A stretch of 64,000 bases of DNA from Sphaerochaetaceae bacterium. GTDB taxonomy: Bacteria > Spirochaetota > Spirochaetia > Sphaerochaetales > Sphaerochaetaceae. The position numbers were made by a program, and so were the translations under genes. This document shows positions 4,556-46,037 of this stretch, one piece after another (the stretch's first letter is position 1; every line of letters starts with the position of its first letter). Below the pieces are notes generated by a model. That model saw nothing but the letters and a program-made list of their open reading frames with translations, did not search any database and was not told the DNA's origin. Where the stretch lies: positions 2,115,579 to 2,179,578 of the forward strand of contig OZ223470.1 in NCBI GenBank assembly GCA_965140795.1, in the 5' to 3' direction.

Positions 4556-5252
4556 ATATTATGATAAAAATTGTGTAGTTAGGGATTGTTCTATAACAGT
4601 AGATGATAAAAAAATATTAACAATATTAGGTCCAAGTGGAAGTGGAAAATCTACTTTAATCTCTTGTATTGCTGGGATTGAACTCCCACAAAGTGGAGTG
4701 ATTACATTAAATGATAATATTTTATTTGATAATAATAGCAAAATCAATTTACCACCCGAAAAAAGAAATATAGGCTTTGTTTTTCAAAATTATGCACTAT
4801 GGCCCCATATGACTATTGAAAAACATCTTAGCTTTCCATTAAAAGCTAAAAAAATGGGAAAAAATTTAATTAAAGAAAAATGCGAAATAATAATCAACAT
4901 GCTAAGATTAGAAGATAAAATCTATAAATATCCTCACCAATTAAGTGGAGGAGAACAACAGAGAGTTGCTTTAGGAAGGGCATTAATAAAAGAGCCTGAT
5001 TTACTATTATTAGATGAACCATTATCTAATTTAGATGCTTTATTAAGAGAAAGAATGCAAGTTGAAATAAGACATATTCAAAAAGAATTAGGAGTTACTA
5101 CAATTTTAGTTACTCATGACCAAGAAGAAGCTAAAAAAATATCTGATCAAGTTGCAGTAATGAATCATGGAATAATTGAACAAATTGGAAGCTTTGATAG
5201 CTTAGTAGATAATCCTCAAACAAATTTTATTGAAGAATTTATAAAAAGATAA
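4524..5252 (+). CDS. ABC transporter ATP-binding protein (short form without C-terminal TOBE-type domain)
   Basis: Walker A GPSGSGKST, signature LSGGEQQRVALGRAL, Walker B LLLLDEPLSNLD and the H-loop TTILVTHD are all present. Confidence 0.9.
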   Translation: MKKLEIKNLYKYYDKNCVVRDCSITVDDKKILTILGPSGSGKSTLISCIAGIELPQSGVITLNDNILFDNNSKINLPPEKRNIGFVFQNYALWPHMTIEKHLSFPLKAKKMGKNLIKEKCEIIINMLRLEDKIYKYPHQLSGGEQQRVALGRALIKEPDLLLLDEPLSNLDALLRERMQVEIRHIQKELGVTTILVTHDQEEAKKISDQVAVMNHGIIEQIGSFDSLVDNPQTNFIEEFIKR

Positions 5253-10038: not shown

Positions 10039-11280
10039 TTAACCTCTTTTTTGTTGTTTGTTTTGTTTTTTTATTATTTCTAAAAAAATATTTTTTTCAA
10101 TTAAATGGTCTATTAATAGGTAATACCCGCCTATAAGTTGAGGGTATTCCATATCTGAAGAAATAATTTCAATAGATTCGTACAAATAGCTATAACAAAG
10201 ATTTTTCACTGTTTCTTTTACTTTGTTTATAAAGTATTCATCATGAGGATAAGCTGATCCAATTACACAAATTTCAGGATTTAGTATATAAATCATATTT
10301 GAAATACCATATCCAAGCATATTTGCAAGTTTAGTAAATGCAAGGATTGCAAGTTCATCTTTAGCATAATAGGCATCGAAAATATCTTTTGTGGAACTGC
10401 TATCATTTAGAACACTGTCGGGGAAACGCCAAATTTCATCTTTAACGTAATCTAAGAGGGCATTTATACTTGCATAACATTCAAAAGAGCCTCTATTTGG
10501 ATGATCACCTTTTTTTTCACCATTAAAATTTATTCCCATATGTCCTATTTCACCAGCTACACCTATAGTGCCGTTTAATATTTTGCCATTAATTACATTC
10601 CCAGCACCAACTCCTGAGCTAACAGACCCTATGTAAAGCAATGAATTATATATTTTATTTTTTGTTTTAATAAAGTTTTTCCATTCTCCAAAAGCACATA
10701 CTTTAACATCATGCATGCTACAAATATAAAAATTATATTTTTGTTTTAAAAGTTGTTCAATATTGAGATTAGTCAAACTTTCAAAACCTTCCACTATATC
10801 AATAGAGCTGTTTTTTTTCCTTATATAAGGACCAGGTAGAGATATGCATAATCCCATTACATTATAAGAAGAAAATTTTAGTAAAACTTCGTCTATGTTA
10901 TAAATGACTATAGATTCTAATCTTTTTTCATTAAATTTTGTTGAAATTGGGACTGAGTATTTATAAAGAAGTGTACCATTTATACTATAAACATATAAAG
11001 AAAAGCAAATTCTACTTATAGAGAGGGAGAGTACTATAAAATTATCTAAGACAAGTTTAATTCCTGTAACACTTCTTCCATTTGCTGTTTTAATTGTACC
11101 AGCATTTTCAATTATACCAAGAGAGAAAAATTCATTGACTATATTTGTTATAGTTGCTTTTTCTAAGTTGGATTCTTTTGCAAGTTGTACTCTCGAGCAA
11201 ATTTTTTTTTCTAAAAGAAACTTTAGTATTAAATTTCGATTATTTTTTTGAACTCTTGAGCTATTTATTCCTGTTTTCAT
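10039..11280 (-). CDS. ROK-family transcriptional repressor (NagC/XylR-like)
   Basis: An N-terminal winged HTH (NRNLILKFLLEKKICSRVQLAKESNLEKATITNIVNEF) is followed by a ROK sugar-kinase-like domain (GVGAGNVINGKILNGTIGVAGEIGHM). It is divergent from the operon starting at 11665. Confidence 0.85.
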   Translation of the reverse strand: MKTGINSSRVQKNNRNLILKFLLEKKICSRVQLAKESNLEKATITNIVNEFFSLGIIENAGTIKTANGRSVTGIKLVLDNFIVLSLSISRICFSLYVYSINGTLLYKYSVPISTKFNEKRLESIVIYNIDEVLLKFSSYNVMGLCISLPGPYIRKKNSSIDIVEGFESLTNLNIEQLLKQKYNFYICSMHDVKVCAFGEWKNFIKTKNKIYNSLLYIGSVSSGVGAGNVINGKILNGTIGVAGEIGHMGINFNGEKKGDHPNRGSFECYASINALLDYVKDEIWRFPDSVLNDSSSTKDIFDAYYAKDELAILAFTKLANMLGYGISNMIYILNPEICVIGSAYPHDEYFINKVKETVKNLCYSYLYESIEIISSDMEYPQLIGGYYLLIDHLIEKNIFLEIIKKQNKQQKRG

Positions 11281-11516
11281 ATGGCCTTCTTATTAAATAG
11301 TTTTATAAATAATAATAAAATTATTTAAAGAATAAGTGAGAAACTTTAAAAAATCAAGAGGAAAATTAATTTATTAGTTAAATTAATTAATTTAATTTAA
11401 TTTAAGCTAAAAAATAGGTAAAAACATAGAATAACGCTCATAAAGGCATAAAAATCGGTAAAAACCCATATAATTTATATGTATATAAAATTAAATAAAT
11501 TAACTAAATAAAAAGA

Positions 11517-11545
11517 TTGACTTCTAAAAAAAGTCGATTTATACT
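11517..11545 (+). promoter_or_regulatory. Candidate sigma70-type promoter of the 11665-20769 operon
   Basis: TTGACT (11517-11522), a 17-nt spacer, then TATACT (11540-11545). It lies about 120 nt upstream of the first start codon. Confidence 0.45.
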
Positions 11546-11664
11546 GTTTTAAGAAAAAAAATCTGTCACTAAATTAAATCAATTAACTTTAATGTTTTTA
11601 TATTCTAATGTAAATTGGAATTCAAAATAAATTTTCACTACCATAATAAAAGGAGGAATTTATT

Positions 11665-12993
11665 ATGAGAAAAGGAAAAAGGCTTTCAACAGTATTATTG
11701 ATTGTCATTTGTCTGTTAACAACAGCTGGAAATTTGTTTGCTAAAGGTGAAACTGAAGAATCAAATTTAGAGGAGAAGGTTACATTGACAGTTTGGGCTG
11801 ATTTTACCGGATTGCTAGGTAAATCATTTACAAATGTTTGTGACGAATTTATGAAAGAGAACCCTAATATTATTATTGATTTTGTACCAGTAGGTCAGAA
11901 TGATATACATGCAAAAATAGGTATGGCTATTAGAGGTAATCAATCACCTGATGTATTCGTTAGAAAGGGCTTGCCTGAATATGCATCACAAGGGTTACTT
12001 TTAGATTTAGAAGATTATTTTGCAGAGAAAGGATTTACTGAAGATACTTTTCATCCCGGGTTTTGGAACACTATTACTTGGGATGGAGTACCATACGGAA
12101 TGCCAACACAAGCTGCACTACCTCTTTTATACTATAACAAAGAGATGTACGAAGAAGCTGGTCTAGATCCTGAAGATCCTCCTCAAACTTGGGAAGAACT
12201 TATGGATTATAATAGAGTTTTGACAAAATATGATGACCAAGGTGCAATTATTCAAGCTGGGTTTGATTTTAGAGGACTTTGGTGGAATGATATGTATATG
12301 TTTCATTTTGGAGTTGATTCAATTTATGATGAACAATCTCATAAATGGGGTGCACCTCAAGGCGTCTATGATTATTTAAAAGCTATTGAGGCTTATAGGG
12401 ATGAATATGGTTCAGATAAGTTAAACAATTTCCATGCATCAACTGATACTTGGGAAGGTATATTTGTTCATAACAAAGTTGCAATGCAATTACAAGGTGA
12501 ATGGTTTAATAATGTTTATAAAGAGTTTGAAAGTTCAACTAATTTTGGAACAACTTTATTCCCTTCTATAGCAAGTGTAGTCAAAGAAAATAATGGATCA
12601 ATGATATATATGGAAGATGATATTGCTATGATACCTGTTAATACAAAACATCCTGATGAAGCTTTTGAATTTTTAGCATATTTCTGTGGATATAATGGTC
12701 AAAAAGTTTTTGATGTAGGAGAAGAAGGGTGTGGTAGAAGTAGCGCTTTAGCTGATGCTGATTATTATGGAACAAGTCCTAATCCATTTATTGAAGATCA
12801 TATTGATGCATTAGAGATTGGATTAAATAGAAAATTCCAATTCCCTAAATCACCTGTAATTGAATATTACAGACAACAGATGGCTGCAATGTTTGATGAG
12901 ATTTTTGTAAGTAATGGAGATGCTTGTGCTTTGTATGATAAATATATTCAGAGAGTACAGGATGCCGAAGATAAGTATTGGTTAACCAATTAA
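11665..12993 (+). CDS. Sugar ABC transporter substrate-binding protein (CUT1, family 1 SBP)
   Basis: The 442-aa protein has a signal peptide and a typical CUT1 SBP pattern (VTLTVWADF...). An AGGAGG RBS precedes it. Confidence 0.85.
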   Translation: MRKGKRLSTVLLIVICLLTTAGNLFAKGETEESNLEEKVTLTVWADFTGLLGKSFTNVCDEFMKENPNIIIDFVPVGQNDIHAKIGMAIRGNQSPDVFVRKGLPEYASQGLLLDLEDYFAEKGFTEDTFHPGFWNTITWDGVPYGMPTQAALPLLYYNKEMYEEAGLDPEDPPQTWEELMDYNRVLTKYDDQGAIIQAGFDFRGLWWNDMYMFHFGVDSIYDEQSHKWGAPQGVYDYLKAIEAYRDEYGSDKLNNFHASTDTWEGIFVHNKVAMQLQGEWFNNVYKEFESSTNFGTTLFPSIASVVKENNGSMIYMEDDIAMIPVNTKHPDEAFEFLAYFCGYNGQKVFDVGEEGCGRSSALADADYYGTSPNPFIEDHIDALEIGLNRKFQFPKSPVIEYYRQQMAAMFDEIFVSNGDACALYDKYIQRVQDAEDKYWLTN

Positions 12994-13008
12994 AAATAGG
13001 AGGAAAAG

Positions 13009-13977
13009 TTGGTTTTCTTATTTAGAAAACCAACTAATAAATTTATGTTACCAAAAGAAAGAAATTCTATTAAACACAAAGTTACTGTATTACTTTTTTT
13101 ATCTCCTTGGCTTGTCGGTTTTTGCGCATTTATTTTAGTAGCTTTATTAAATAGTTTTAGATTATCCTTTACAGCTTATAATTTATTTAAGCCACCAAAA
13201 TTTATTGGACTTAGTAATTATAAAGCTCTATTTAAAGATGAAATTTTTATTCAGGTATTAGGCAATACAATTTTTTATACTTTTTTTGCTTTTATATTAA
13301 ATTTTACAGTAGCTTTTTTATTATCTCTCTTTATATTTGATCATAAAAGAAATAAATATCCTGGAGTAATGATTTTTAAAACGTTATATTTCATTCCTTA
13401 TATTATACCTTTTGTTGCTTATGCTATTGTTTGGAAATTTATGTATAATCCACAGTTTGGTATTGTTAATTATTTTATTTCAATATTTGGAGGGACACCA
13501 CAGACATGGTTAACATCAAAATCGTTGGTTAAACCTTCTATTATATTTGCAAATATTTTATTAATGGGCCCACAAATGATAATTTTTTATTCAGGTCTTC
13601 AAGATATACCAGAAAGTCTTTTTGACTCACTCAAGATTGATGGAGCAAATTGGTTTCACAGGTTAAAAGATGTTATAGTTCCAATTTTATCCCCAATTAT
13701 GATTTTTAACGGAATTTTACTATTCATTTATTCTTTTCAAGTATTTGCTTTGCCATTAGTAATGACAGAAGGAAACAGCAGTACTACTACTTCTTGTGGA
13801 GGGCCAGCACATTCTAGCACTTTCTATTTGATGTATCTTTATGATACTGCCTTCACTAGATTAGATTTAGGTTTTGCAAGTGCAATGGCTTGGGTAATGT
13901 TCATTATTTTATTAATTTGCAGTTCAGTATTTTTGTATTTGCAAAAGCATAAAACGTTTTATATGGGGGACTGTTAA
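13009..13977 (+). CDS. Sugar ABC transporter permease (MalF/UgpA-like)
   Basis: It has 6 TM segments and an EAA-type loop (DSLKIDGANWFHRLKDVIVPIL). The start is TTG, 5 nt after AGGAGG. Confidence 0.85.
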   Translation: MVFLFRKPTNKFMLPKERNSIKHKVTVLLFLSPWLVGFCAFILVALLNSFRLSFTAYNLFKPPKFIGLSNYKALFKDEIFIQVLGNTIFYTFFAFILNFTVAFLLSLFIFDHKRNKYPGVMIFKTLYFIPYIIPFVAYAIVWKFMYNPQFGIVNYFISIFGGTPQTWLTSKSLVKPSIIFANILLMGPQMIIFYSGLQDIPESLFDSLKIDGANWFHRLKDVIVPILSPIMIFNGILLFIYSFQVFALPLVMTEGNSSTTTSCGGPAHSSTFYLMYLYDTAFTRLDLGFASAMAWVMFIILLICSSVFLYLQKHKTFYMGDC

Positions 13978-14813
13978 TGAAAATTAAAAAAACTTTTTCA
14001 TTATTATTTGGATTTTTTATAGCGATTATTATGATATTTCCTTTATATTGGATGATTTCATTATCACTAATGAGTAATCTAGAAATATATCAATTACCAG
14101 TTAAATTTTTTCCTAAAAGTTTTTATTTAGAGAATTACAAGTATGTATTTAATACAGAAACCTTTCTTTATTTTAGATTTTTATTGAATACAATATTGGT
14201 AGCAGCTCTTGGTGGATTTGGCACTGCGATAGGTAGTTCTCTACCAGCATATGCTTTTTCAAAATTAGAATGGAAAGGACGTGATTTATTTTTATCAATA
14301 ACAATTGCTACGTTGATGATTCCTGAAATAGCATATATTGTTCCAAGATATTTGATTTTTAATAAATTAAATTTAATTGGTACATATGCTCCGATGTGGC
14401 TTCCTTCAGCTTTAGGGACTGCTTTTAATATATTCCTATTTACCCAATTCTTTAAAGAAATTCCTAAAGGATTATCTGAGGCCGCTATTATTGATGGTTG
14501 TAATCATTTTCAGATTTATTCAAGAATTGTTCTTCCTTTAGGAAAGAATTCTATAATAACAGTAGTTACATTGCATTTTGTATGGGCCTGGAAAGAATTG
14601 ATGACACCTATGGTTTATTTTACAAAAAATAAAATGTTTACCTTATCTTTAGGTTTAAAGAATTTTGTTAGTTCTGGTGCAGGAGCAGGAGAAATTCCTT
14701 TAGGAGCAGGCATGGCTGCAGCTTTTTTAACAGCTTTACCAGTATTAATACTATTTTTGGTATTCCAAAAAAATATATCTGGAGGAATAGCTACAACGGG
14801 TACAAAAGGATAA
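13977..14813 (+). CDS. Sugar ABC transporter permease (MalG/UgpE-like)
   Basis: An EAA loop is present (EAAIIDGCNHFQIYSRIVLPL). The start overlaps the previous stop (TAATGA). Confidence 0.85.
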   Translation: MKIKKTFSLLFGFFIAIIMIFPLYWMISLSLMSNLEIYQLPVKFFPKSFYLENYKYVFNTETFLYFRFLLNTILVAALGGFGTAIGSSLPAYAFSKLEWKGRDLFLSITIATLMIPEIAYIVPRYLIFNKLNLIGTYAPMWLPSALGTAFNIFLFTQFFKEIPKGLSEAAIIDGCNHFQIYSRIVLPLGKNSIITVVTLHFVWAWKELMTPMVYFTKNKMFTLSLGLKNFVSSGAGAGEIPLGAGMAAAFLTALPVLILFLVFQKNISGGIATTGTKG

Positions 14814-14826
14814 AAGGAGTAAATAA

Positions 14827-15654
14827 ATGAAAAATGAAGAAGAACTAAAAAAAATAGCTTTAGACCTTAGAAAAATGACTGTTAGAGAAATAGCCCATTT
14901 TGGTGGAGGTCATATTGGAGGGTCAATGTCTATTATAGAGATATTAACATATCTCTATTACGAAGAAATGAATATTGATCCTAAAAATCCACTCAAAAAA
15001 GATCGTGATCGTTTTGTCTGTAGTAAAGGACATGCTGGGCCAGCAGTTTATGCTACATTAGCAAATAAAGGATTTTTTTCAAAAGAAGAATTGAATACAT
15101 TAAATTTAGGTGGAACTAAGTTGCCATCACATTGTGATATGACTAAAACTCCTGGTATTGATTTTACTGCAGGCTCTTTAGGCCAAGGCATAAGCGCAGC
15201 TGTTGGTATAGCATTAGGTCAAAAAATCAAAGAACAAGGTGCTAATACTTTTGCAATTATTGGAGATGGAGAAAGCCAAGAAGGGGAAGTTTGGGAAGCT
15301 GCTGAAACTGCTGCTCAATGGAAACTTGATAATTTATTCGTTTTTACAGATTTAAATCATAAACAACTTGATGGTTGGACAGACGATATTATTAATATGA
15401 AAAATTTAGATACTAGGTGGGTAGGGTTTAATTGGGATGTTCAAAGAATCAATGGACATAATTTTATTATGATTCAAAGAGCTATTGAAGAAGCTAAAAA
15501 AGTTAAAGATAAACCTCATATGATAATATTAGATACTATAAAATCGTACGGATATATTCCCGCTGAAAATCTTGTTTATAACCATGGCTTTAATGTTTCA
15601 GAAAAAGAAGGTGAAGAGGCAATTTCTTTATTAGAAAAAAGAGAGGGTAAATAA
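14827..15654 (+). CDS. Transketolase, N-terminal (TPP-binding) subunit
   Basis: Motifs GGHIGGSMS, GSLGQGIS and GDGESQEGEVWEA are present. The length of 275 aa is typical of split transketolases. Confidence 0.9.
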   Translation: MKNEEELKKIALDLRKMTVREIAHFGGGHIGGSMSIIEILTYLYYEEMNIDPKNPLKKDRDRFVCSKGHAGPAVYATLANKGFFSKEELNTLNLGGTKLPSHCDMTKTPGIDFTAGSLGQGISAAVGIALGQKIKEQGANTFAIIGDGESQEGEVWEAAETAAQWKLDNLFVFTDLNHKQLDGWTDDIINMKNLDTRWVGFNWDVQRINGHNFIMIQRAIEEAKKVKDKPHMIILDTIKSYGYIPAENLVYNHGFNVSEKEGEEAISLLEKREGK

Positions 15655-16598
15655 TGAAAGATATTAGTAAATTAAAAGATATGCGTGATGCTGAAATGCT
15701 AGCTATTATTGAACTAGCTCAAGAAAATGAAAATATAGTATTCTTAGATGCAGATTTAGCAAACTGTAGTGGGAGTGAAATTTTCAAAGAAAAATTCCCA
15801 AATAGATTTTATAATTGTGGAATTGCTGAAGCAAATATGATGGCTGTAGCTGGAGGTTTATCTTCTATGGGATTTAAACCTTTTGTTCATACTTTTGGAT
15901 GTTTTGCTACAAGAAGGGCATTCGATCAAATATTTATTTCTTTAGGATATACTTTTCAGACTACAAATATAATAGGTACTGATCCTGGAATAACAGCTCA
16001 GTCAAATGGTGGCACACATATGCCTTTTGAAGATATATCGCTTATGAGACAGATTCCAAATTCAGTGATAATTTGTCCAAGTGATGCATATAGTTGTTAT
16101 CAATTGACAAAACAAATATTTGAGATGGATTGTGTAACTTATACTAGGATTCGTAGGAAAGGCATTTCTTTTAGATATGATAAAGATACAGAAATAACAT
16201 TAGGAAAGGGAATAGTTTTAGAAGAAGGTGAAGACATAGCAATTATAGCAAATGGTGAAGTTTTGGTTGATGAAGCTTCTAAAGCCGTAGAAGAGTTAAA
16301 AAAAGGAGGTATTCACCCAACTTTAATTGATTTACATACTATTAGACCTTTAGATACTGAATTGATTGATAAAGTTGCAAAAAAGTGTGGGAAAATTATT
16401 GTCTGTGAGAATGGAAGATATTGTGGTGGGTTAGGTGAAGAAATTTCATATTATTTGGCAAAAACAAATCCTGTAAAAATGGACTTCATTAATGTTGGTG
16501 ATAGATTTGGTGAAGTTGGAAATCTTGAATATTTAAAGAAAACTTTTGGATTTACAAAAGAACAAATAAAAGCAAAAGTTTATAATCTTTTAAAATAG
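15654..16598 (+). CDS. Transketolase, C-terminal (pyrimidine-binding) subunit
   Basis: The motif FYNCGIAEANMMAVAGGL and a 314-aa length are consistent with this subunit. The start overlaps the previous stop by 1 nt. Confidence 0.9.
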   Translation: MKDISKLKDMRDAEMLAIIELAQENENIVFLDADLANCSGSEIFKEKFPNRFYNCGIAEANMMAVAGGLSSMGFKPFVHTFGCFATRRAFDQIFISLGYTFQTTNIIGTDPGITAQSNGGTHMPFEDISLMRQIPNSVIICPSDAYSCYQLTKQIFEMDCVTYTRIRRKGISFRYDKDTEITLGKGIVLEEGEDIAIIANGEVLVDEASKAVEELKKGGIHPTLIDLHTIRPLDTELIDKVAKKCGKIIVCENGRYCGGLGEEISYYLAKTNPVKMDFINVGDRFGEVGNLEYLKKTFGFTKEQIKAKVYNLLK

Positions 16599-16619
16599 AA
16601 AGGACTGGGAAAAAATAAA

Positions 16620-17864
16620 ATGAATAATTCTGAGAAAGGCCTTAAAGAAAAAAAATTTAAAGAATATTTTCTTATGAATGAAGACGATGTTATTGATTAC
16701 TTCAAATATAGATTTAATTTCTTTGAAAGAAATGCTCAATTAAATTGTAAAGAAATAGGTGATGGAAATATTAATTATATTTTTAGAATAGTTAATGAGT
16801 TAGATGGTAAATCTGTAATTGTTAAACAAGCTGGAATGGAATGTAGAACAGGTGGAGCGCTTACAATTGAAAGAGGTAAAATTGAAACCGATGTTATGAA
16901 ATTAGAAGAGAAATATGCTAAAGGGCTAGTTCCAAAAATTTATTATTATGATGATATAATGAAGACAATAATAATGGAAGATATGATTGACCATGAACTA
17001 CTGAGAACAGGTTTGATTAAACACAAGATTTATAATCATTTTAGTGATGATATTACAACATTTCTTGTAAATACATTATTTATGACTAGTGATCTAGTAA
17101 TGGATCATAAAGAGAAAAAAAAGTTAGTTTGCCATTTTATTAATCCTGATCTTTGTGCAATTTCAGAAAAACTTGTATATACAGAACCATTTGAAGAGTT
17201 GAAAGAAAATAATGTCTTTCCTGATACTTTACCTTTTGCAAGAGAAGAATTGTATAACGATGAAAAGCTTAAATTAGAAGTTGCAAAATTAAAATTTGAA
17301 TTTATGAACAACGCACAATCACTTATCCATGGAGATTTACATTCAGGATCAGTTTTTATAAATCAAAACCATACTTTTGTTTTTGATTCTGAATTTGCAT
17401 TTTATGGTCCTATGGGTTATGACATTGGAAATGTAATAGCTAATTTATTTTTTGCTTGGGTAAACGGAGATTCTACAATAGAAAATACAAAAGAGAGAGA
17501 AAGTTTTTGTAATTGGATTTTGCATAGTATTTTTGATATTGTAGATAAATTTATTGATAAGTTTAAGAAAAGTTATGAAATTAATGTAAATGATAAAATG
17601 GCTAAAGTTCCTGGTTTTATGGAATATTATTTAAGCGGGGTTTTATCCGATTCTGCCGGAGTCGCAGGATTAGAATTAATTCGAAGAGTTGGTGGAAAAG
17701 CTAAAGTAAAAGATATCACTTGTATAGGACTTAGAGATAAACGGCTTAGGGCTGAAAAAATTATACTAAATCTTGGAAAACAATTTATTTTTAAACGAAA
17801 AGAATTAAATAATGGTGCGGATTATCGTGAATTAATATTAAAAAATATTAAAAAATTTTCTTAA
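16620..17864 (+). CDS. mtnK: S-methyl-5-thioribose kinase family protein (MtnK/DrdK-like pentose 1-kinase)
   Basis: As I recall the Bacillus MtnK sequence, this protein is colinear with it: EIGDGNINYIFRI, INPDLCAISEKLVYTEPF, LIHGDLHSGSVF, DSEFAFYGPMGYDIGN, AGLELIRR. Confidence 0.85.
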   Translation: MNNSEKGLKEKKFKEYFLMNEDDVIDYFKYRFNFFERNAQLNCKEIGDGNINYIFRIVNELDGKSVIVKQAGMECRTGGALTIERGKIETDVMKLEEKYAKGLVPKIYYYDDIMKTIIMEDMIDHELLRTGLIKHKIYNHFSDDITTFLVNTLFMTSDLVMDHKEKKKLVCHFINPDLCAISEKLVYTEPFEELKENNVFPDTLPFAREELYNDEKLKLEVAKLKFEFMNNAQSLIHGDLHSGSVFINQNHTFVFDSEFAFYGPMGYDIGNVIANLFFAWVNGDSTIENTKERESFCNWILHSIFDIVDKFIDKFKKSYEINVNDKMAKVPGFMEYYLSGVLSDSAGVAGLELIRRVGGKAKVKDITCIGLRDKRLRAEKIILNLGKQFIFKRKELNNGADYRELILKNIKKFS

Positions 17865-17910
17865 AATAAAAAAAGGATCAATTTTTTCAAAATAGTAAGA
17901 GGAATTTGTG

Positions 17911-18945
17911 ATGAAAAGAGAAGATAAAAACTTAGCATATATGCTTCAATATGAACATATTGCTTGGTATGAAAATGGAAAAGTAAGAATATTAGATCGT
18001 AGAGTATATCCTAATAAAGTTGAATATGTTACTTGTAATTCTTACCATGAGGTAGCTCAAGCTATAAAAGATATGGTTACACAGAGTGGTGGACCTTATT
18101 TAGCTGCCGGTATGGGAATGGTTTTAGCTGCAAATAGTTGCAAAAATATGAGTGGCACAAAAAAGATAGCATATTTAAGAGATGCGGCAAAAGTGCTCGC
18201 GACTGCTCGTCCAACAACATCTGAAGGTATGAAGATAATAACTCAAAATTGTTTAACAGTAGCAAAGGATAGTATTTTGGTTGGTAGTGATACAATTGAA
18301 GCTATATTTAATCATACAATTGAAAGGATGAATAAAAACTATCAAAAAAATGATAAAATTGCTGATTACCTTACGGATTTTTTTCCAGATAAAGGAGGTG
18401 TACTAACTCAATGTTTTGGAGAGTCTGTTGTTGGTTTAATGCTTAGGCAGTTAAAAAGAAAAAACAAAGAACTTAAGATTTTCTGTGCAGAAACTCGTCC
18501 ATATTTTCAAGGGGCAAGACTTACAGCAAGTGTTGCAAAAGATCAAGGCGCTGATGTAACAGTTATTACAGATAATATGCCAGCTTTTATAATGTCTCAG
18601 AATAAAATTGATGTTTTTACATCTGCGGCAGATGTTATTACCTGCGATGGACATGTAATTAACAAAATAGGAACATCTCAAATTGCTATTTTATGTAAAT
18701 ATTTTAGTATTCCTTATTATACAACTGGTAATCCTGATTTTGCTCATAAAGATTTATCAAATGTTGAGATAGAGATGCGTGATCCGAATTTCACTCTTCA
18801 AGCTATGGGGGTAAGAACTGCTATGAAAGGTGTTAAAGGTTATTATCCTGCTTTTGATATTACTTCCCCTGATTTAGTAACAAAAATAGTTACATCTAAA
18901 GGGGCTTTTACCCCAGAAAAGGTTAATTCCTTTTTCGATTATTAA
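17911..18945 (+). CDS. MtnA/eIF-2B-related aldose-1-phosphate isomerase family protein (non-canonical active-site motifs)
   Basis: The family core is present: CAETRPYFQGARLTA and INKIGTSQIAILCKYFSIPYY. I moved the start to the ATG at 17911, 7 nt after AAGAGGA. Motif deviations are described in the findings. Confidence 0.75.
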   Translation: MKREDKNLAYMLQYEHIAWYENGKVRILDRRVYPNKVEYVTCNSYHEVAQAIKDMVTQSGGPYLAAGMGMVLAANSCKNMSGTKKIAYLRDAAKVLATARPTTSEGMKIITQNCLTVAKDSILVGSDTIEAIFNHTIERMNKNYQKNDKIADYLTDFFPDKGGVLTQCFGESVVGLMLRQLKRKNKELKIFCAETRPYFQGARLTASVAKDQGADVTVITDNMPAFIMSQNKIDVFTSAADVITCDGHVINKIGTSQIAILCKYFSIPYYTTGNPDFAHKDLSNVEIEMRDPNFTLQAMGVRTAMKGVKGYYPAFDITSPDLVTKIVTSKGAFTPEKVNSFFDY

Positions 18946-18957
18946 TAGGAGTTTTAT

Positions 18958-19602
18958 ATGTTAATGCAAAAAGAAAGAGAAGCTATAGCTTTTTATGGAA
19001 ATAAAATGGTTGAGGATAAATTAACCTTTGGAACAGGTGGAAACATTAGTATTATTGATAGAGCTAAAGGCTTTGTTGCAATAAAACCCTCAGGAATGGA
19101 ATATTCAGAAATAAAAGCAGAAGATGTTGTTGTTGTAGATTTAGATAGAAATATTATTGAAGGTAGTAGAAAACCTTCTAGTGAATTAGCTCTTCATTTA
19201 GCTTTTTATGAAAAGAAAAAATTTGTCAATTCAGTTGTTCACTGTCATTCAATATTTGCTATTACATATGCTGTTTTAAAAAGACCTTTGAAAGCTGTTC
19301 ATTATATAATAGGTGATGCAGAAACTTCAGTTATCCCTTGTGCCCCTTACACTACTTTTGGAACTGATGAATTAGCTAATATAACAATAGATGCTTGTAA
19401 AGATAGTAAAGCTGTTTTAATGGCAAATCACGGACAAACAACTTGCGGAAGAAATATCAAAGAGGCATATGGCCTTGCATTAAATGTTGAGAAAATTGCA
19501 GAAATTTCTTATAGAGCTGAATGCATAGGTAAGCCTAATATTTTAACTGAAAAACAAATGGAAGACGCTTTAATAAGATTTAATACTTATGGGCAAAAAT
19601 AA
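18958..19602 (+). CDS. Class II aldolase/adducin-family protein (L-fuculose-1-P aldolase / Ald2 / DrdA-like)
   Basis: Motifs GTGGNISI, VVHCHS and MANHGQTTCG are present and the length is 214 aa. Confidence 0.85.
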   Translation: MLMQKEREAIAFYGNKMVEDKLTFGTGGNISIIDRAKGFVAIKPSGMEYSEIKAEDVVVVDLDRNIIEGSRKPSSELALHLAFYEKKKFVNSVVHCHSIFAITYAVLKRPLKAVHYIIGDAETSVIPCAPYTTFGTDELANITIDACKDSKAVLMANHGQTTCGRNIKEAYGLALNVEKIAEISYRAECIGKPNILTEKQMEDALIRFNTYGQK

Positions 19603-19611
19603 GAGAAAAGA

Positions 19612-20769
19612 ATGAATAATTTTTATTTTAACATAAACACAAAGATTTATTTTGGAACGGATCAACTTACACATTTAAATGAGCTGAAAAATTTTGGAAG
19701 AAAAGTTCTATTAGTATATGGTGGGGGAAGTATAAAACGTAATGGGCTCTATCAAAAGGTTTGTAATATATTAAGAAATAACGATTTAGAGATTGATGAA
19801 TTAAGTGGTGTAGCTCCAAATCCAAAAATTGACACTGTTCGTAAAGGTGTTAAATTGTGTAAAACTAATAAAATTGATATGGTTTTGGCAGTAGGTGGTG
19901 GAAGTGTTATTGATTGTGCTAAAATAATTGCTGCGGGATCTTGTTATGCAAAAGATCCTTGGGACTTAATTGAAAATGGTAAGAAAATAGAAAGCTCTTT
20001 GCCTATTATTACTATTTTGACAATGTCAGCTACTGGCTCAGAGATGGATCCTTTTGCAGTGATTTCTGATTTATCTAGAAATTTAAAGATGGCCACTGAA
20101 TCACAATATATTAGACCTAAATTGTCTATACTAAATCCTGAATTTACTTTTTCTGTTCCTAAAAAACAAACAGCTGCAGGTATAGCTGATATATTTAGTC
20201 ATACTTGTGAAAATTATTTTAATAATGTGAAAGGGGCTTCTATCCAATCTCATTTTGCAGAAGGGGTTTTTAGAACAGTAATAGAGTTTGGCCCAATTGC
20301 ATATAATGAACCTAATGATTATATAGCTAGAGCTAATTTAATGTGGGCCTCAAGTATGGCTATAAATGGGATAATATCATTGGGTAATGAAGTTGCTTGG
20401 AGTGTCCATCCAATTGAACATGAATTAAGTGCATTTTATGATATAACTCACGGAGTTGGTTTAGCAATTTTAACAACATATTGGATGGAATATATTATAA
20501 ACAAAGACCCTAAGACAATAGATAAATTTGTTCAATTTGGTAAAGAAGTTTGGAAAATAAGTGATAAAAATAAACCTCTTGATATTGCTAAAATATCTAT
20601 TGAAAAAACAAGAGCCTTTTTTGATCAACTTAATCTTCCAAATAAATTGTCTCAAGTAAATATTGACAATACTTACTTCGAAAAAATGGCAAAAAAAGCA
20701 TCTTGTTCTTCTGGATTTTGTCCATTATCTAAAGATGATGTATTAGAAATTTTAAAAATGGCTCTTTGA
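19612..20769 (+). CDS. Iron-containing (group III) alcohol dehydrogenase
   Basis: Motifs VYGGGS, AVGGGSVIDCAK and a His cluster (HPIEHELSAFYDITHGVGLA) are present. The length is 385 aa. Confidence 0.9.
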   Translation: MNNFYFNINTKIYFGTDQLTHLNELKNFGRKVLLVYGGGSIKRNGLYQKVCNILRNNDLEIDELSGVAPNPKIDTVRKGVKLCKTNKIDMVLAVGGGSVIDCAKIIAAGSCYAKDPWDLIENGKKIESSLPIITILTMSATGSEMDPFAVISDLSRNLKMATESQYIRPKLSILNPEFTFSVPKKQTAAGIADIFSHTCENYFNNVKGASIQSHFAEGVFRTVIEFGPIAYNEPNDYIARANLMWASSMAINGIISLGNEVAWSVHPIEHELSAFYDITHGVGLAILTTYWMEYIINKDPKTIDKFVQFGKEVWKISDKNKPLDIAKISIEKTRAFFDQLNLPNKLSQVNIDNTYFEKMAKKASCSSGFCPLSKDDVLEILKMAL

Positions 20770-20836
20770 CGATTATATATAAAAAAGATTTTTTCTATAT
20801 TTAATTAGTTTAAAAATATATGTAAGACTTAAATAT

Positions 20837-20873
20837 AAAAGAGGAATTTTCGATATAACAGAGTTCCTCTTTT
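20837..20873 (+). terminator. Rho-independent terminator of the 11665-20769 operon
   Basis: A 10-bp stem pairs AAAAGAGGAA (20837-20846) with TTCCTCTTTT (20864-20873). Confidence 0.55.
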
Positions 20874-21391
20874 AAGGTATTAGTTGATTCTAATCGATTA
20901 CTTGTTTTCTTATGTGAGCTTTTTTAAGTATATAATAAATACTTATATAATTCAATTTGCTTTTACTGCTTCAATTAAACTATAATATAAAGTTGGAATT
21001 TCTATTCTTTATTGTAATACACTAAATAACTAATTATTTTATAATTTATTTATATAATCTAGATTTGATTTTTTTATATTGTTATTTTATGCTTGGTTTG
21101 TTTATTGTATTGTTATAAATTATAGTCCTTTTTTAAATAATTTTATTACAGATTTTGTTTCAATTTTTGTGGAGTGTTTTATAGTTTTGTAACTAAAAAG
21201 CTAATTTATTAATATTCATTTTTATCAATAAAAATAAGAAAGAAATATTTTATATATCTGTACTGAATCTTTAGCTTCGTATTTTAAAAAAATCTTTCTA
21301 TCTGATAGTATTATAGAATTGATTAATCAAATCGAATTGATTTATAGAATAAATAATAATAGTATGAATTATATTGTTATTGGAGATATTT

Positions 21392-24608: not shown

Positions 24609-25373
24609 TTAGATACAATCTTCTCTTATTTTCTCTAAAAAGTTTTCTTCTTTTGAAGAAATAATTCTAATATTTGAAGGAACTTTTGTATCTTTTGTGC
24701 TTTCAATATTAAAAAGTTCAGGATATCTTGAAATAAGTATAACTAACTCAGTTGATATTTTTTCAAGGTGATGTTGCGTAATTTTTATTGCTCTTTCCAA
24801 ATTTCTGTTTTCAATTGCTAAAATTAAGTCTTTATGATTTTGGATAACATTTTCATATGGACTAATACCTGTTGTTATTGCTAATAATCTAACTCTAAAT
24901 TCATTTGGAGTAAAATCGTTTATCAAATTCCAACATTTTTCTTTTTTAATAGATTTGAATATATTGTTATGGAATTCGTTGTCTTTTTTTGTAAATAAAA
25001 GACTATTTTTTGCTTTTGCATATTTTTCTTGTTCTATTAAACATTCTTTCATTAATTTTAAACTTTTACTATTGTCTATTGTTAACATTTCATTTAGTGC
25101 TTCAATTTCAAGTGCACGTCTAACGAATCTTTCTTCTTCAGTGTTTTTGATATCAATTAAAGATATTCTAGAGCCACTTTGTGGAAAAATTTCAATTAAA
25201 TTTTCTCTATTTAATCTTAGGATTGCTTCTCTTACAGGAGATCTACTTATGTTTAATTTATTTGCAACTGAGGCAACACTTATGCTTTTCCCAGGTTTAT
25301 ATTCTAAATCAAGAATTTTATTTCTTAGTGTGCTATAAACTTCATCTGCCAAATTATTATTACTGTTAGACAT
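24609..25373 (-). CDS. GntR-family transcriptional regulator (FadR/FCD subfamily)
   Basis: A GntR winged HTH (VYSTLRNKILDLEYKPGKSISVASVANKLNISRSPVREAILRL) is followed by a helical C-terminal domain. It is divergent from the operon at 25901. Confidence 0.85.
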   Translation of the reverse strand: MSNSNNNLADEVYSTLRNKILDLEYKPGKSISVASVANKLNISRSPVREAILRLNRENLIEIFPQSGSRISLIDIKNTEEERFVRRALEIEALNEMLTIDNSKSLKLMKECLIEQEKYAKAKNSLLFTKKDNEFHNNIFKSIKKEKCWNLINDFTPNEFRVRLLAITTGISPYENVIQNHKDLILAIENRNLERAIKITQHHLEKISTELVILISRYPELFNIESTKDTKVPSNIRIISSKEENFLEKIREDCI

Positions 25374-25900
25374 TTTAGTTCCTTTTCTATGGGTTCCCCC
25401 TAAAATGATATATACAGTTAATTATTATCTTATATATTTTAGGTACTTACATTTTAGTATGATTATTAAGAATAATCAATAATTATATTTATTAATATGT
25501 TAGTAGTTTATTTATTAAGTTTATATATTATACTAATATATGTGTATTATATATAATATTTTATTAAAACTAAAATACTTTTTATCATTGAATTAATAAA
25601 ATAATAATATATAATTAATTGTATAATAAGTAATTATACATGATATATAATATCGCAATAAAAAATAATTATAAAAGTAATTGACATATTAATTTTTCAT
25701 GTTACACTTTTTACATAAAGCTATTAACATGTTAATAAGACTTATATTACTGATAAAAGCGTTTTAGTAATAGATATTTGAAATTGTTTTACTGGTGTTT
25801 TTGTTAGAAAATGATATATTTAATAATAAAAGGTGTTTGATTAGAAGTTTTAGTATTAATAGTTTTAAAAAAATCTTTATTTTTTTCAAAAGGAGTAATT

Positions 25901-26926
25901 ATGAAAAAGAAAATTTTATTTGTTTTTATGGTTGTCTTATCTGTTGGACTAATTTTTGCAAATGGTCAGAGTGAAAATGATTCTAGTAAATCTGGTGGAT
26001 ATGTTATTGGATTTAGTAATTCCTATAATGGTAATACTTATAGACAAGCTATGGAAAATTTTATGAGAGAAGCAGCTGCTGATTTAAAATCAACCGGAGA
26101 ATTGAAAGAATTAATATTTGCAGAATCAAATCAAAATAATAGTACACAAGTTCAACAAATTGAAAATTTTATTCTTCAAAAAGTTGATGCAATTATTATC
26201 GATCCAGGTTCAGGTACTGCTTTAAATGGTGCAATTCAAGAAGCTTCTGATGCAGGTATTCCTTGTATTATTATTAATGATGGACCTATTTCTTCCAAAG
26301 CTGAGCTATGTTATCAAATTAATTTTGATAATGTTGCAATGATGAGTTATTTAACAGATTATGTTTGTAATGCAATCGGAGGCAAAGGTAATTTAATAGA
26401 ATTAAGAGGTACTGCTGGTTCAAGTTTTGATGGAATTGCACATAGTGGTGTAGTAGAAGGTCTTAAAAATTATCCAAATGTTAATGTAGTTTCAGAAATC
26501 TATACAGATTGGACAGGATCAAAAGCTCAATCTGAATTAGCTTCAGTTTTACCAACACTAACAAGTATTGACGGTATCGTAACTCAAGGTGGAGATTCAT
26601 ATGCTGCAGTTCAAGCTTTCTTATCAGCAGGGTTGGAATTACCAGTAATTGGTGGTGATAATAGAGGTTATTTCTTAAAATGGTGGGCAAATGAAGCTCC
26701 AGAGAATTATGATACAGTTTCAGTTTCTTCAAATCCTTGGGATGGAGCAACTGGATTATATGTTGCTGTAGATATTCTTGATGGATTGGATGTTCCCAAA
26801 GAAATGATTCATCCATTTGCAATTATTACAAAAGATACAGTACAAGAATATAAAGATGTAGCTGATGAGGCTATTTGTTGTCCGACCTATGACCGTGATT
26901 GGGTAAGAACTAATCTTTATAACTAA
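25901..26926 (+). CDS. Sugar ABC transporter substrate-binding protein (CUT2, PBP type I, RbsB-like)
   Basis: A signal peptide is followed by VIGFSNSYNGNTYRQAM and DAIIIDPGS, the pattern of periplasmic-binding-protein type I. Confidence 0.85.
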   Translation: MKKKILFVFMVVLSVGLIFANGQSENDSSKSGGYVIGFSNSYNGNTYRQAMENFMREAAADLKSTGELKELIFAESNQNNSTQVQQIENFILQKVDAIIIDPGSGTALNGAIQEASDAGIPCIIINDGPISSKAELCYQINFDNVAMMSYLTDYVCNAIGGKGNLIELRGTAGSSFDGIAHSGVVEGLKNYPNVNVVSEIYTDWTGSKAQSELASVLPTLTSIDGIVTQGGDSYAAVQAFLSAGLELPVIGGDNRGYFLKWWANEAPENYDTVSVSSNPWDGATGLYVAVDILDGLDVPKEMIHPFAIITKDTVQEYKDVADEAICCPTYDRDWVRTNLYN

Positions 26927-26936
26927 TATTAATAGT

Positions 26937-26958
26937 TGCATATCTTTTATGATATGCA
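26937..26958 (+). promoter_or_regulatory. Intra-operon hairpin directly after the binding-protein gene
   Basis: A perfect 8-bp stem TGCATATC/GATATGCA has a 6-nt loop. No clear U-tract follows. Confidence 0.3.
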
Positions 26959-26990
26959 GCTAAAATATATTTAATTAGGGGGATTTTATT

Positions 26991-27695
26991 TTGAAATTGT
27001 CACAAATAAATGAATTATCGAAATTAATTAATAATTTAGAATTCATTGATTTATCTTATACATTAGAAGAGGGTATGCCTACTTGGCCAACACAAGCTAG
27101 GTATTCTTCAACAATATATGAATCATATGATTATGGAGATGAATCACTTCATTCAAGAATTACATTATCTGAGCACACGGGAACCCATATAGATGCTCCA
27201 AAGCATTTTTATAAAGAAGGATGTTCTATTGATGAGTTAAACGTAAATACTATTTTTTCAAGAGGTGTTAAAATCTCTGCAAAATTCATTGAACCTAAAT
27301 CTTTATTTACATTAAAGGATTTAGATAGATTTGAACAAGAAAATGGTGAAATATCTGAATCAGATATTGTAATGTTTCAATTTGGTTGGGATTCAAAATA
27401 TGGGACATATTTAAATAGTAAAGAGTATATGAAAGATTGGCCAGGAATTAGTGAGGAAGTAGCTGTTGCATTAAAAGAAAAGAAGATTGCTGCTGTTGGT
27501 TGCGATACATTATGTATTGATGTTTATAATTCACCTACTAATCCAGCTCATAAGGTCTTATTAGGAAATAAAATACCGATTATTGAAAATATAAAAAATT
27601 TGGATTTAATCTCTGTTTATTCTTATGTAATAGGGTTACCTAATAAGTTTAAAAATGGATCAGGTTCTCCAATAAGATTAATCTCTTTAAATTAA
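26991..27695 (+). CDS. Cyclase-family metal hydrolase (kynurenine formamidase/isatin hydrolase fold)
   Basis: The motif HTGTHIDAPKHF, with DxxxD/H-type metal ligands, is characteristic of the putative-cyclase family. The start is TTG, after GGGGGA. Confidence 0.75.
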   Translation: MKLSQINELSKLINNLEFIDLSYTLEEGMPTWPTQARYSSTIYESYDYGDESLHSRITLSEHTGTHIDAPKHFYKEGCSIDELNVNTIFSRGVKISAKFIEPKSLFTLKDLDRFEQENGEISESDIVMFQFGWDSKYGTYLNSKEYMKDWPGISEEVAVALKEKKIAAVGCDTLCIDVYNSPTNPAHKVLLGNKIPIIENIKNLDLISVYSYVIGLPNKFKNGSGSPIRLISLN

Positions 27696-27705
27696 AGGAT
27701 GATAA

Positions 27706-31081: not shown

Positions 31082-31266
31082 GTGTAATCAAAAAATAATT
31101 TTTAAGATTCAAAAACAAATTTTTAATTTGTTTTAGGTTTTTATTGTCAAAAAATAAATCAAATCTAGTTTTTAATCATAATTTAAAAATTTGGATTAAA
31201 AGTTTAAGTCGAATTTTAACTAAAAATTTTTATAAATTATGTAGTTGAGAATATAAGGAATAAAAT

Positions 31267-32283: not shown

Positions 32284-32301
32284 TAGTAACTAGAGGAAAT
32301 T

Positions 32302-43213: not shown

Positions 43214-43226
43214 AAATCCTCTAATA

Positions 43227-43240
43227 TGTTACATGTTACA
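43227..43240. promoter_or_regulatory. Operator-like box 1 (in the 5' leader of the LacI gene)
   Basis: The sequence is TGTTACATGTTACA, related to boxes 2 and 3. Confidence 0.35.
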
Positions 43241-43332
43241 TTTAATTAAATGTTAATATATAATGTTCATTTAGTATAGTAATATAGATGAAAGAAAAAT
43301 ACAATAAAAAAATGTGAATTGCTTTATAAATA

Positions 43333-43346
43333 TGTAACATGATACA
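43333..43346. promoter_or_regulatory. Operator-like box 2
   Basis: TGTAACATGATACA is an imperfect palindrome with half-sites TGTAACA and TGTATCA. Confidence 0.35.
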
Positions 43347-43542
43347 TATTTAGGCAATTAGTTTAATAATTTGCTTTTAAAAGAGGTAATCAATTTGTTC
43401 TTTATTAAAATTAATTATATAAATCATATAATTGGTAATAAATAAGTTTTTTATTAAAAAAATATAAAAAACCTAAAAATATTAGTTATAAACTATTAAA
43501 AATATCAAAATTATTAGTAAAAATAATTAAATTATTTTTTTA

Positions 43543-43571
43543 TTGACAGATGAATTTTTATAACTTACTAT
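43543..43571 (+). promoter_or_regulatory. Candidate promoter of the glycyl-radical-enzyme operon
   Basis: TTGACA (43543-43548), a 17-nt spacer, then TACTAT (43566-43571). Confidence 0.5.
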
Positions 43572-43574
43572 AAA

Positions 43575-46031: not shown

Positions 46032-46037
46032 GATATT

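Follow-up and report, generated by a model that had tools for sequence, protein, structure and literature searches.

A dihydroxyacetone phosphate shunt-type operon with a CUT1 importer and a split transketolase in a Sphaerochaetaceae bacterium

Why would an operon whose predicted products are dihydroxyacetone phosphate (DHAP) and an aldehyde also encode a transketolase and a sugar importer? This question is raised by a gene cluster in a 64-kb stretch of DNA (contig OZ223470.1, positions 2,115,579 to 2,179,578, assembly GCA_965140795.1) from a Sphaerochaetaceae bacterium. The whole stretch, referred to here as the window, has a G+C content of about 27%, and coordinates are given as positions in it. 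The cluster at 11665-20769 comprises nine closely spaced open reading frames (ORFs), all on the + strand, which encode a CUT1-type importer, the two subunits of a split transketolase, a kinase, an isomerase, a class II aldolase and an alcohol dehydrogenase. ORF calls and the Pfam and NCBIfam matches agree with the initial annotation of this DNA, which had described nine co-directional, tightly packed genes of these families. The intergenic gaps in gene order are 15, -1, 13, -1, 21, 43, 12 and 9 nt, a Shine-Dalgarno-like motif precedes each of the nine genes, and the G+C content of third codon positions is uniform (0.13-0.19). We read the nine genes as one catabolic transcription unit. By comparison with known clusters, the operon is a mosaic in which the same chemistry appears to be built from different enzyme lineages. 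We assign a probability of roughly 0.4 to the whole statement that this is a mosaic DHAP-shunt operon that includes the transketolase as a working step.

The kinase, isomerase, aldolase and alcohol dehydrogenase

In the published DHAP shunt, a kinase, an isomerase and an aldolase act in this order and yield DHAP and acetaldehyde, and several of the clusters encode sugar transporters (PMC6079011). In Escherichia coli, the shunt genes and a transporter gene form one operon that is induced when exogenous 5-deoxy sugars or nucleosides serve for growth (PMC12632272). Because published clusters carry transporters, a shunt with its own importer is not new in itself.

The kinase gene of the window (16620-17864, +) encodes a protein of 414 amino acid residues that was assigned to the MtnK/DrdK family of 5-substituted-ribose 1-kinases. 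It matched TIGR01767, the equivalog model of methylthioribose kinase, with 397 bits (cut-off 275) and MtnK of Bacillus subtilis (2OLC) with 268 bits, which places it at family level among the kinases of the DHAP shunt. The identities to its nearest homologues were 56-59%, and it was 52% identical to DrdK. The next gene (17908-18945, +) encodes an MtnA-family protein, a predicted isomerase of aldose-1-phosphate to ketose-1-phosphate, which scored above the cut-off of NF004326 (330 versus 271 bits) and below that of TIGR00512 (196 versus 279 bits). Its nearest relatives in the homologue search were 60-65% identical and were all in shunt-type clusters. In a pairwise table, the isomerases formed two clades, with identities of 52-80% within the clades and 28-34% between them. 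The isomerase of the window falls into the clade called clade A and was 52-62% identical to the isomerases of Hungatella-type clusters. Its identities to true MtnA and to DrdI of Bacillus cereus, both of which belong to the other clade, were 28-33%. Judged from the clusters compared, clade A is uncharacterised and always found in shunt-type clusters.

The aldolase gene (18958-19602, +) encodes a class II aldolase of 214 amino acid residues (Pfam Aldolase_II). Its best solved relative was DrdA of Bacillus thuringiensis (6BTD; 211 bits, versus 115 bits for FucA of E. coli), and it was 49% identical to DrdA of the B. cereus group; it is thus of the DrdA/Ald2 type. The score with NF005302 was slightly under the cut-off (249 versus 264 bits), and that with the NCBIfam model of ribulose-1-phosphate aldolase was far below it (169 versus 300 bits). 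The last gene (19612-20769, +) encodes an Fe-dependent alcohol dehydrogenase of the YqhD/BdhA type with 385 amino acid residues (Pfam Fe-ADH and ADH_Fe_C), whose solved relatives include 7W9X, 1VLJ and YqhD. This protein was only 25% identical to the alcohol dehydrogenase of the Hungatella-type clusters, so an enzyme of another lineage appears to fill the same role here. The genes that encode the kinase, the isomerase and the aldolase are adjacent and co-oriented, with 43 and 12 nt between them. The families of the proteins and the recurrence of this gene context make it highly probable that these four genes are the core of a DHAP-shunt module (5-deoxyribose salvage, Drd type) that proceeds via 5-deoxyribose or 5-methylthioribose. 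The initial annotation had read the kinase, isomerase and aldolase as the DHAP shunt, which the closeness of the aldolase to DrdA bears out, and had placed the dehydrogenase at the aldehyde-reduction step, with which an enzyme of the YqhD/BdhA type is in keeping.

Similar to the window, DrdK, DrdI and DrdA of B. thuringiensis, as well as MtnK, MtnA and Ald2 together with a permease in Rhodospirillum rubrum and extraintestinal pathogenic E. coli, combine the same three enzyme families in one operon. The likeness extends to the dedicated transporter, found in several of the published clusters, and to the inferred products, DHAP and an aldehyde. Different from the Drd system, however, the isomerase was only 33% identical to DrdI, compared with 52% between the kinase and DrdK. 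Moreover, the operon has a CUT1 ABC importer instead of a permease and a ROK regulator instead of DeoR or MtnR, and it adds the Fe-dependent alcohol dehydrogenase and the split transketolase. The later steps of methionine salvage (MtnB, enolase-phosphatase or MtnW/X, MtnD and a transaminase) were found neither in the operon nor among the larger scanned ORFs of the window, and the MtnB models matched the aldolase with 65 bits against a cut-off of 137. Canonical methionine salvage was therefore rejected. By the sequence features tested, the operon belongs to the DHAP-shunt/Drd family, with an isomerase of an uncharacterised clade.

The initial annotation had suggested a survey of the gene neighbourhoods of MtnK homologues. 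Our scan of one genome per species, with an alignment of kinases as the query, gave 80 loci; the window's own species was not among them. Ten proteins of the window were compared with all 80 loci. The importer or the layout of the window was found in none of them. Any transketolase was found within 10 kb in three loci, and all three were of other types. DrdA-like aldolases (43-49% identity) were found in 11, including those of the B. cereus group. The nearest relatives of the kinase are in clusters of Lacrimispora and its relatives (L007 and L002-L012), here called type B, in which MtnK and true MtnA are combined with a CUT2 ABC importer, a long class II aldolase, an acylating aldehyde dehydrogenase and a DeoR regulator. 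The nearest relatives of the isomerase are in clusters of Hungatella and its relatives (L082, L084 and L085), here called type A, which contain a kinase, carriers of the DcuC/NhaC type, a class II aldolase, an Fe-dependent alcohol dehydrogenase and the isomerase. Some type A clusters also have a mutarotase or nucleoside hydrolases (the latter in L084), and two of the three (L082 and L085) have a DeoR regulator.

The window shares with type A the isomerase clade (52-62%), the Fe-dependent alcohol dehydrogenase step and the presence of a transporter, whereas the carriers, the lineage of the dehydrogenase (25% identity) and the DeoR regulators of L082 and L085 set type A apart. With type B it shares the lineage of the kinase (56%) and an ABC importer, whereas the CUT2 class of that importer, the true MtnA, the long aldolase, the acylating aldehyde dehydrogenase and DeoR are different. 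Neither type has a transketolase or a CUT1 importer like that of the window. Thus, the kinase is nearer to those of type B and Bacillus, the isomerase is of clade A and the aldolase is nearest to DrdA. The Clostridia loci show that a transporter, the shunt and an aldehyde-handling enzyme are a recurrent unit in anaerobes.

Two further arrangements were observed. In Clostridium bovifaecis (CP046522.1, L073, 1-12303), two different shunt clusters adjoin each other. One contains an alcohol dehydrogenase, an aldolase, a clade-A isomerase, a kinase and an NhaC-type carrier, and the other combines a second MtnK with true MtnA and a CUT2 ABC system. As both cluster types occur at this locus, they are suggested to handle different substrates. 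In Spirochaetia bacterium MS502-30 (L067, 2545-14248) and a deltaproteobacterial metagenome-assembled genome (L034, 2267-11233), MtnK and MtnA are found with a CUT2 ABC system and a divergent transketolase-like enzyme that matched Transketolase_N with just 61-64 bits; these clusters showed no class II aldolase. The cluster of L067 also has a RuBisCO-like protein, a pyridoxal-phosphate enzyme and a PfkB kinase. These two loci look like a branch of their own in the metabolism of methylthioribose or 5-deoxyribose that does without the aldolase; no description of it was found in the literature searched. Being just 29-34% identical and located in aldolase-free clusters, their transketolase-like genes were rejected as relatives of the system in the window.

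The transketolase and the importer

The transketolase is encoded by two genes. The first (14827-15654, +) encodes the N-terminal subunit (TK-N) with the thiamine diphosphate-binding PP domain (Pfam Transketolase_N, 164 bits), and the second (15654-16598, +) encodes the C-terminal subunit (TK-C) with the Pyr and C domains (Transket_pyr and Transketolase_C). The stop codon of TK-N overlaps the start of TK-C, and the two permease genes upstream likewise overlap by 1 nt. The best solved relative of TK-N was the split transketolase of Carboxydothermus hydrogenoformans (6YAK, 222 bits); TK-C matched the same enzyme with 203 bits, and human transketolase was the next solved relative of the transketolase. 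In the alignment with TktA of E. coli, residues H26, H66, H100, H261, H473, N185, E411, R358 and R520 (E. coli numbering) and the GDG motif were conserved. The pair thus has the two subunits and the catalytic and cofactor residues of a split-chain transketolase, an architecture shared with the C. hydrogenoformans enzyme (6YAK/6YAJ) and the transketolases of Sphaerochaeta. Both phosphate-binding Arg residues are present, and all inspected positions are the same as in Sphaerochaeta. TK-C also retains 126 of the 134 columns that are conserved in at least 90% of 118 homologues, and the six departures that it has in common with its closest relative, P0241, are all conservative and away from known sites. 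By these residues, the transketolase is an ordinary-type enzyme.

The identities between the transketolase of the window and those of Sphaerochaeta were 62-69% overall and 68-69% for TK-N. The Sphaerochaeta genes have syntenic housekeeping surroundings with tRNA synthetase genes on both sides, whereas the copy in the window is part of a sugar operon, and the organism, with 27% G+C, has shunt genes nearest to those of Clostridia. P0241 (79% identity) is from another organism, on a 3.5-kb metagenomic contig (L086) with the same order as the window: a permease (85%), TK-N (80%), TK-C (79%) and an MtnK-type kinase. The kinase fragment of L086 was 49% identical to the kinase of the window and 57-62% identical to type A kinases (62% to that of Hungatella). 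The identities thus indicate that importer and transketolase remained one block with a shunt kinase after it, even as the kinase lineage changed. Apart from L086, the nearest relatives of the transketolase are housekeeping enzymes of spirochaetes, and the gene therefore looks laterally acquired. The initial annotation had noted that the two subunits might be the sole, housekeeping transketolase of the organism, merely co-located with the shunt. The overlap of stop and start codons and the spirochaetal relatives, together with the apparently substrate-specific regulator, disfavour this status as well as that of a chance neighbour; a substrate-regulated operon is an unlikely home for the only housekeeping transketolase. 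Different from the searches with the kinase and the isomerase, the homologue search with TK-C did not return its own 100% match, which is probably a quirk of the database.

Upstream of the transketolase genes are those of the importer. They encode an extracellular solute-binding protein of 442 amino acid residues (11665-12993, +; Pfam SBP_bac_1), permease 1 of 322 residues with a TTG start (13009-13977, +; Pfam BPD_transp_1, UgpA/MalF-like matches) and permease 2 of 278 residues (13977-14813, +; Pfam BPD_transp_1, UgpE/MalG-like matches), the one whose counterpart in L086 was 85% identical. Pfam, NCBIfam and fold comparisons all place this combination of a binding protein and two MalF/MalG-type permeases in CUT1. 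As the initial annotation had stated, no ATPase gene is among the nine ORFs, and the ABC ATPases encoded elsewhere in the window (4524-5252, 27706-30147 and 48453-49931) belong to other systems. ATPases of the MsiK/MsmK/MalK type are often shared among CUT1 importers and encoded apart from them, and this importer would also borrow an ATPase that is encoded elsewhere. The dedicated importer genes in the operon agree with the earlier suggestion that an exogenous sugar is used.

The binding protein is a near-orphan. A profile-free search of 1.84 billion representatives gave one cluster that was 60% identical and otherwise identities of at most 34%, with only 26 proteins at E < 1e-30. A metagenome scan with the binding protein added one remote relative (24%) and no further relatives of the operon. 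The relatives with identities of 30-33% are on short contigs with few neighbouring genes; one that is 33% identical adjoins a nucleoside hydrolase gene. The AlphaFold2 model of the binding protein, built on 60 homologues, had a pLDDT of 92 (37 for a single-sequence version). The closest folds were oligosaccharide-binding CUT1 proteins, such as 4R9G and 4R9F (23-24% identity); the TM-scores of these matches were 0.73-0.76, at identities of no more than 24%. As these fold neighbours are generic binders of di- and oligosaccharides, the ligand is not readable from the model and may be of the size of a nucleoside or a glycoside.

The sole orthologue of the importer (binding protein P0361) is on L097, a 254-kb metagenomic contig with a G+C content of 47% (JGI metagenome 3300035548). 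The identities between the two importers were 60% for the binding proteins, 61% for permease 1 and 64% for permease 2. In L097, the gene for an FSA/TalC enzyme (TIGR00875, 289 bits; cut-off 246) precedes those for the binding protein and the two permeases, after which come genes for a ribokinase-like PfkB kinase, then a class II ketose-bisphosphate aldolase and then a ROK protein, the last of which was just 23% identical to that of the window. In the same region of L097 (7343-17922), a GntR regulator gene and an N-acetylneuraminate-lyase-like gene are upstream of the importer, and a gene for a 543-aa protein with no family match is downstream of the ROK gene. Transketolases, transaldolases or FSA enzymes and class II aldolases of the fructose-bisphosphate type typically act at a 3S,4R (D-threo) ketose. 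Given that the importer is joined to a transketolase and the shunt here, and to an FSA-family enzyme, a kinase and a class II aldolase in L097, the imported sugar may be a ketose. We treat this as a lead only, as an identity of 60% is no proof of the same ligand.

Taken together with published work, shunt modules with a transporter and an aldehyde-handling enzyme are already known. What is new is that a near-unique CUT1 importer is combined with a ROK regulator and with a transketolase that is co-translated, a combination shared with at least one other organism. Our literature search found no description of a shunt cluster with a transketolase.

Possible roles of the transketolase and the imported sugar

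The reading that we favour, and that we hold tentatively, takes the transketolase as a working step of the pathway that trims a ketose for the shunt. The CUT1 importer would take up a free D-threo ketose of the 7-deoxysedoheptulose type, in which the terminal hydroxyl is absent. The transketolase would transfer C1-C2 of this sugar onto glyceraldehyde-3-phosphate (GAP), giving xylulose-5-phosphate and 5-deoxyribose. The MtnK-family kinase would phosphorylate the 5-deoxy- (or 5-methylthio-) ribose at C1, the MtnA-family isomerase would convert the product to the ribulose-1-phosphate form, and the DrdA-like aldolase would cleave this to DHAP and acetaldehyde (or methylthioacetaldehyde). The Fe-dependent alcohol dehydrogenase would then reduce the aldehyde, acetaldehyde being reduced to ethanol, which would suit a fermenter. 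The DHAP from the aldolase would regenerate the GAP acceptor, so that the net reaction would be ketose + ATP to xylulose-5-phosphate + acetaldehyde + ADP. This model uses all genes of the operon, matches their order and accounts for the coexistence of an aldolase and a transketolase. A transketolase that acts on the aldehyde product was rejected, because the dehydrogenase already does so and every related cluster has its own aldehyde enzyme. The importer, FSA/TalC enzyme, PfkB kinase and class II aldolase of L097 might be another way to deal with this ketose or one related to it, and such alternatives would parallel the transketolase, transaldolase and Embden-Meyerhof-Parnas-like routes for sulfoquinovose.

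The chemistry has precedents. In vitro, 5-deoxyribose and 7-deoxysedoheptulose can be converted into each other by transketolase (PMC8102628). In the sulfoquinovose transketolase pathway of Clostridium sp. MSTE9 (SqwGH and SqwF), a two-gene, pentose-phosphate-like transketolase in an anaerobe's catabolic cluster, as in the window, cleaves unphosphorylated 6-deoxy-6-sulfofructose, a sugar that is not phosphorylatable at its far end, with GAP as the acceptor, and an Fe-dependent alcohol dehydrogenase then reduces the final aldehyde (PMC9594981). Since SqwGH is a close homologue of the pentose-phosphate enzyme, a missing signature of specialisation is no argument against a pathway role. Different from the sulfoquinovose pathway, the transketolase of the window would act once and then hand over to the kinase, isomerase and aldolase. 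The family scans found none of its markers SqvD (FucI-like isomerase), SqvB (DUF4867), SqwI (RpiB-like) and YihQ (markers per PMC9594981) in the operon or its flanks, and membership of the operon in this pathway was rejected for this reason. The alcohol dehydrogenase of the window matched the model of sulfoacetaldehyde reductase (SarD) with 94 bits against a cut-off of 700.

The D-apiose route, which the initial annotation had brought up, reportedly has a split transketolase for apulose-4-phosphate beside a sugar ABC importer. The donor in that route is said to be phosphorylated, and the route is said to need an apulose kinase as well as an isomerase or reductase for apiose, all of which are absent from the operon; it reportedly has no set of MtnK, MtnA and aldolase. 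The operon was not assigned to the apiose pathway because the marker genes are absent. By analogy, the sulfoquinovose transketolase pathway is a better precedent than apiose (PMC9594981).

Several points weigh against a ketose-trimming transketolase. Both the ligand of the binding protein and the substrate of the transketolase are predictions of this model. The fold neighbours of the binding protein bind di- and oligosaccharides, which would be no worse a fit for a nucleoside or a glycoside than for a heptulose, and the 33% identical relative is beside a nucleoside hydrolase. The residues of the transketolase gave no signature of specialisation, the key residues being those of its housekeeping relatives. 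Moreover, 7-deoxysedoheptulose is rare, and no catabolic route for it was found in the literature searched. The enzymes of L097 give no obviously complete route for this sugar, and an identity of 60% does not guarantee the ligand. In addition, the transketolase arrangement is found in two organisms only, in one of them as a 3.5-kb fragment, and the isomerase is of an uncharacterised clade. It is doubtful that 7-deoxysedoheptulose itself is the imported sugar, and it is unlikely, to a similar degree, that we have here the first route by which 7-deoxysedoheptulose or a close terminally deoxy ketoheptose is catabolised or detoxified.

The same observations allow for direct import, in which 5-deoxyribose, 5-methylthioribose or, with a nucleosidase encoded elsewhere, a 5'-deoxynucleoside enters the shunt at once and the transketolase is a helper or a hitch-hiker. 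As a helper, it would boost the exchange of triose and hexose phosphates with pentose and erythrose phosphates on a substrate that yields only DHAP; as a hitch-hiker, it would merely have been inherited with the importer genes. Exogenous 5-deoxy sugars and nucleosides are the proven growth substrates of transporter-bearing shunt operons (PMC12632272; PMC6079011). The transketolase, which is normal by all sequence tests, keeps both phosphate-binding Arg residues and has housekeeping enzymes as relatives, would be at home in this role. Disaccharide-size ligands, as taken by the fold relatives of the binding protein, would fit nucleosides, and nucleoside hydrolases are encoded both in the related cluster L084 and beside the distant relative of the binding protein. 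However, the shunt gives DHAP and an aldehyde and no pentose phosphate, and transketolases embedded in operons are normally a mark of routes in which ketose phosphates are formed or cleaved. The importer was absent from all 80 MtnK loci, of which just three had a transketolase nearby, in each case of another type. Against direct import, too, the junction of importer and transketolase outlived a change of kinase lineage, and the orthologous importer of L097 is found with FSA, PfkB and a class II ketose-bisphosphate aldolase and with no 5-deoxyribose enzyme. We regard direct import as a serious contender, if one that we would not expect to hold.

In favour of a working step, the transketolase is co-translated between the importer and the kinase in a presumably regulated operon, and its junctions with both are kept in the second organism (L086). 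Neither the transketolase nor the unusual importer is explained if the operon mainly serves the disposal of sulfur or by-products instead of carbon catabolism. It would then, like the anaerobic DHAP-ethylene shunt, take up 5-methylthioribose or methylthioadenosine and turn it into 2-(methylthio)ethanol and DHAP, with an incidental transketolase. The kinase passes the equivalog model of methylthioribose kinase and has its nearest relatives in clusters with true MtnA, and the alcohol dehydrogenase step would match the reduction of methylthioacetaldehyde; the Drd enzymes, too, accept methylthioribose (PMC6079011). The isomerase, on the other hand, was only 28-33% identical to true MtnA and DrdI, the aldolase is DrdA-like, and neither a gene for the use of methylthioethanol nor a later step of methionine salvage was found in the 64-kb window, which makes sulfur disposal improbable. 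We give equally little credence to a shift of specificity to a hydroxylated sugar, such as ribose or free sedoheptulose, by which DHAP and glycolaldehyde would be formed, the dehydrogenase would produce ethylene glycol and the transketolase would act on normal pentose and heptose phosphates. The isomerase clade is uncharacterised, the dehydrogenase is YqhD-like and enzymes of the YqhD type reduce glycolaldehyde. The ribulose-1-phosphate aldolase model does match the aldolase, and the set of ribokinase-like PfkB, FSA/TalC and class II aldolase in L097 would suit sedoheptulose or a similar ketose. However, the score of that aldolase model is 169 against a cut-off of 300, the kinase is well above the methylthioribose kinase cut-off, and cheaper 5-kinase routes exist for ordinary pentoses. 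The aldolase is also closest to DrdA, for which a preference for 5-deoxy substrates is documented (PMC6079011).

The DHAP shunt is a widespread means of disposing of, or growing on, 5-deoxy sugars released by radical-SAM and polyamine chemistry, and this operon presents a shunt that appears to have been rebuilt from different lineages and attached to a near-unique importer and a transketolase. If the transketolase step is true, free deoxy-ketoses would join the sugars that enter the shunt. After that of sulfoquinovose, this would then be the second example in nature of a transketolase of the pentose-phosphate type that acts on an unphosphorylated sugar not phosphorylatable at its far end. 7-Deoxysedoheptulose is a herbicidal antimetabolite of cyanobacteria and streptomycetes, for which the operon would then be a candidate route of degradation or resistance. 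If the transketolase is a mere helper, the operon would be an ordinary though rare variant.

Control signals and other loci in the window

Divergent from the operon is a gene (10039-11280, -) for a ROK-family regulator of 413 amino acid residues (Pfam ROK, 108 bits). The initial annotation had reported this divergent gene, which is indeed present, located just outside the segment that it described (11281-20873). The ROK domain covers residues 95-374, and the models of NagC and Mlc align over residues 11-402; these and all other equivalog scores were far under their cut-offs. The length of the protein fits the repressor type with an N-terminal DNA-binding part. By its position, the ROK protein probably controls the operon, and from gene size and position it plausibly acts as a repressor. 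In the 384-nt divergent intergenic region (11281-11664, +), a search for an operator palindrome gave only AT-rich, low-complexity inverted repeats and no recognisable operator.

The best sigma-70-like promoter site in this region, TTGACT-17-TATACT (11517-11545, +), was found by the consensus scan and by direct reading. The good promoter claimed earlier is thus present as a site, but it carries little weight because the scan as a whole was below the shuffle expectation in this AT-rich DNA. For the terminator claimed downstream, direct reading and RNA folding gave a terminator-like hairpin with a stem of about 15 bp followed by a U-run (about 20836-20880, +; z = -2.1), whereas the consensus scan made no call, as the stem is poor in G+C.

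A second operon with features of deoxy-sugar metabolism is located at 42203-52566, under a LacI regulator (42203-43213, -). It encodes a glycyl-radical enzyme (43614-46031) that belongs to the dehydratase clade and matched TIGR01774 with 617 bits, lower than all equivalog cut-offs, together with the radical-SAM activase of this enzyme (46038-46949). Also encoded are an FGGY kinase that resembles rhamnulokinase (46961-48460), a CUT2 ABC system (48453-51902) and a FucA-like class II aldolase (51919-52566), whose identity to the aldolase of the shunt was 34%; a sugar isomerase was not seen in this operon. At 24609-33324, a GntR regulator (24609-25373, -) is upstream of + strand genes for a Peripla_BP_4 binding protein, a cyclase/arylformamidase-like protein, a fused ABC ATPase-permease of 813 amino acid residues, a second permease and two Zn-dependent dehydrogenases. 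Finally, the gene at 38764-40824 encodes a protein of 686 amino acid residues with six DUF285 repeats and a Listeria-Bacteroides repeat; surface proteins of this type are common in Mollicutes and in some Firmicutes.

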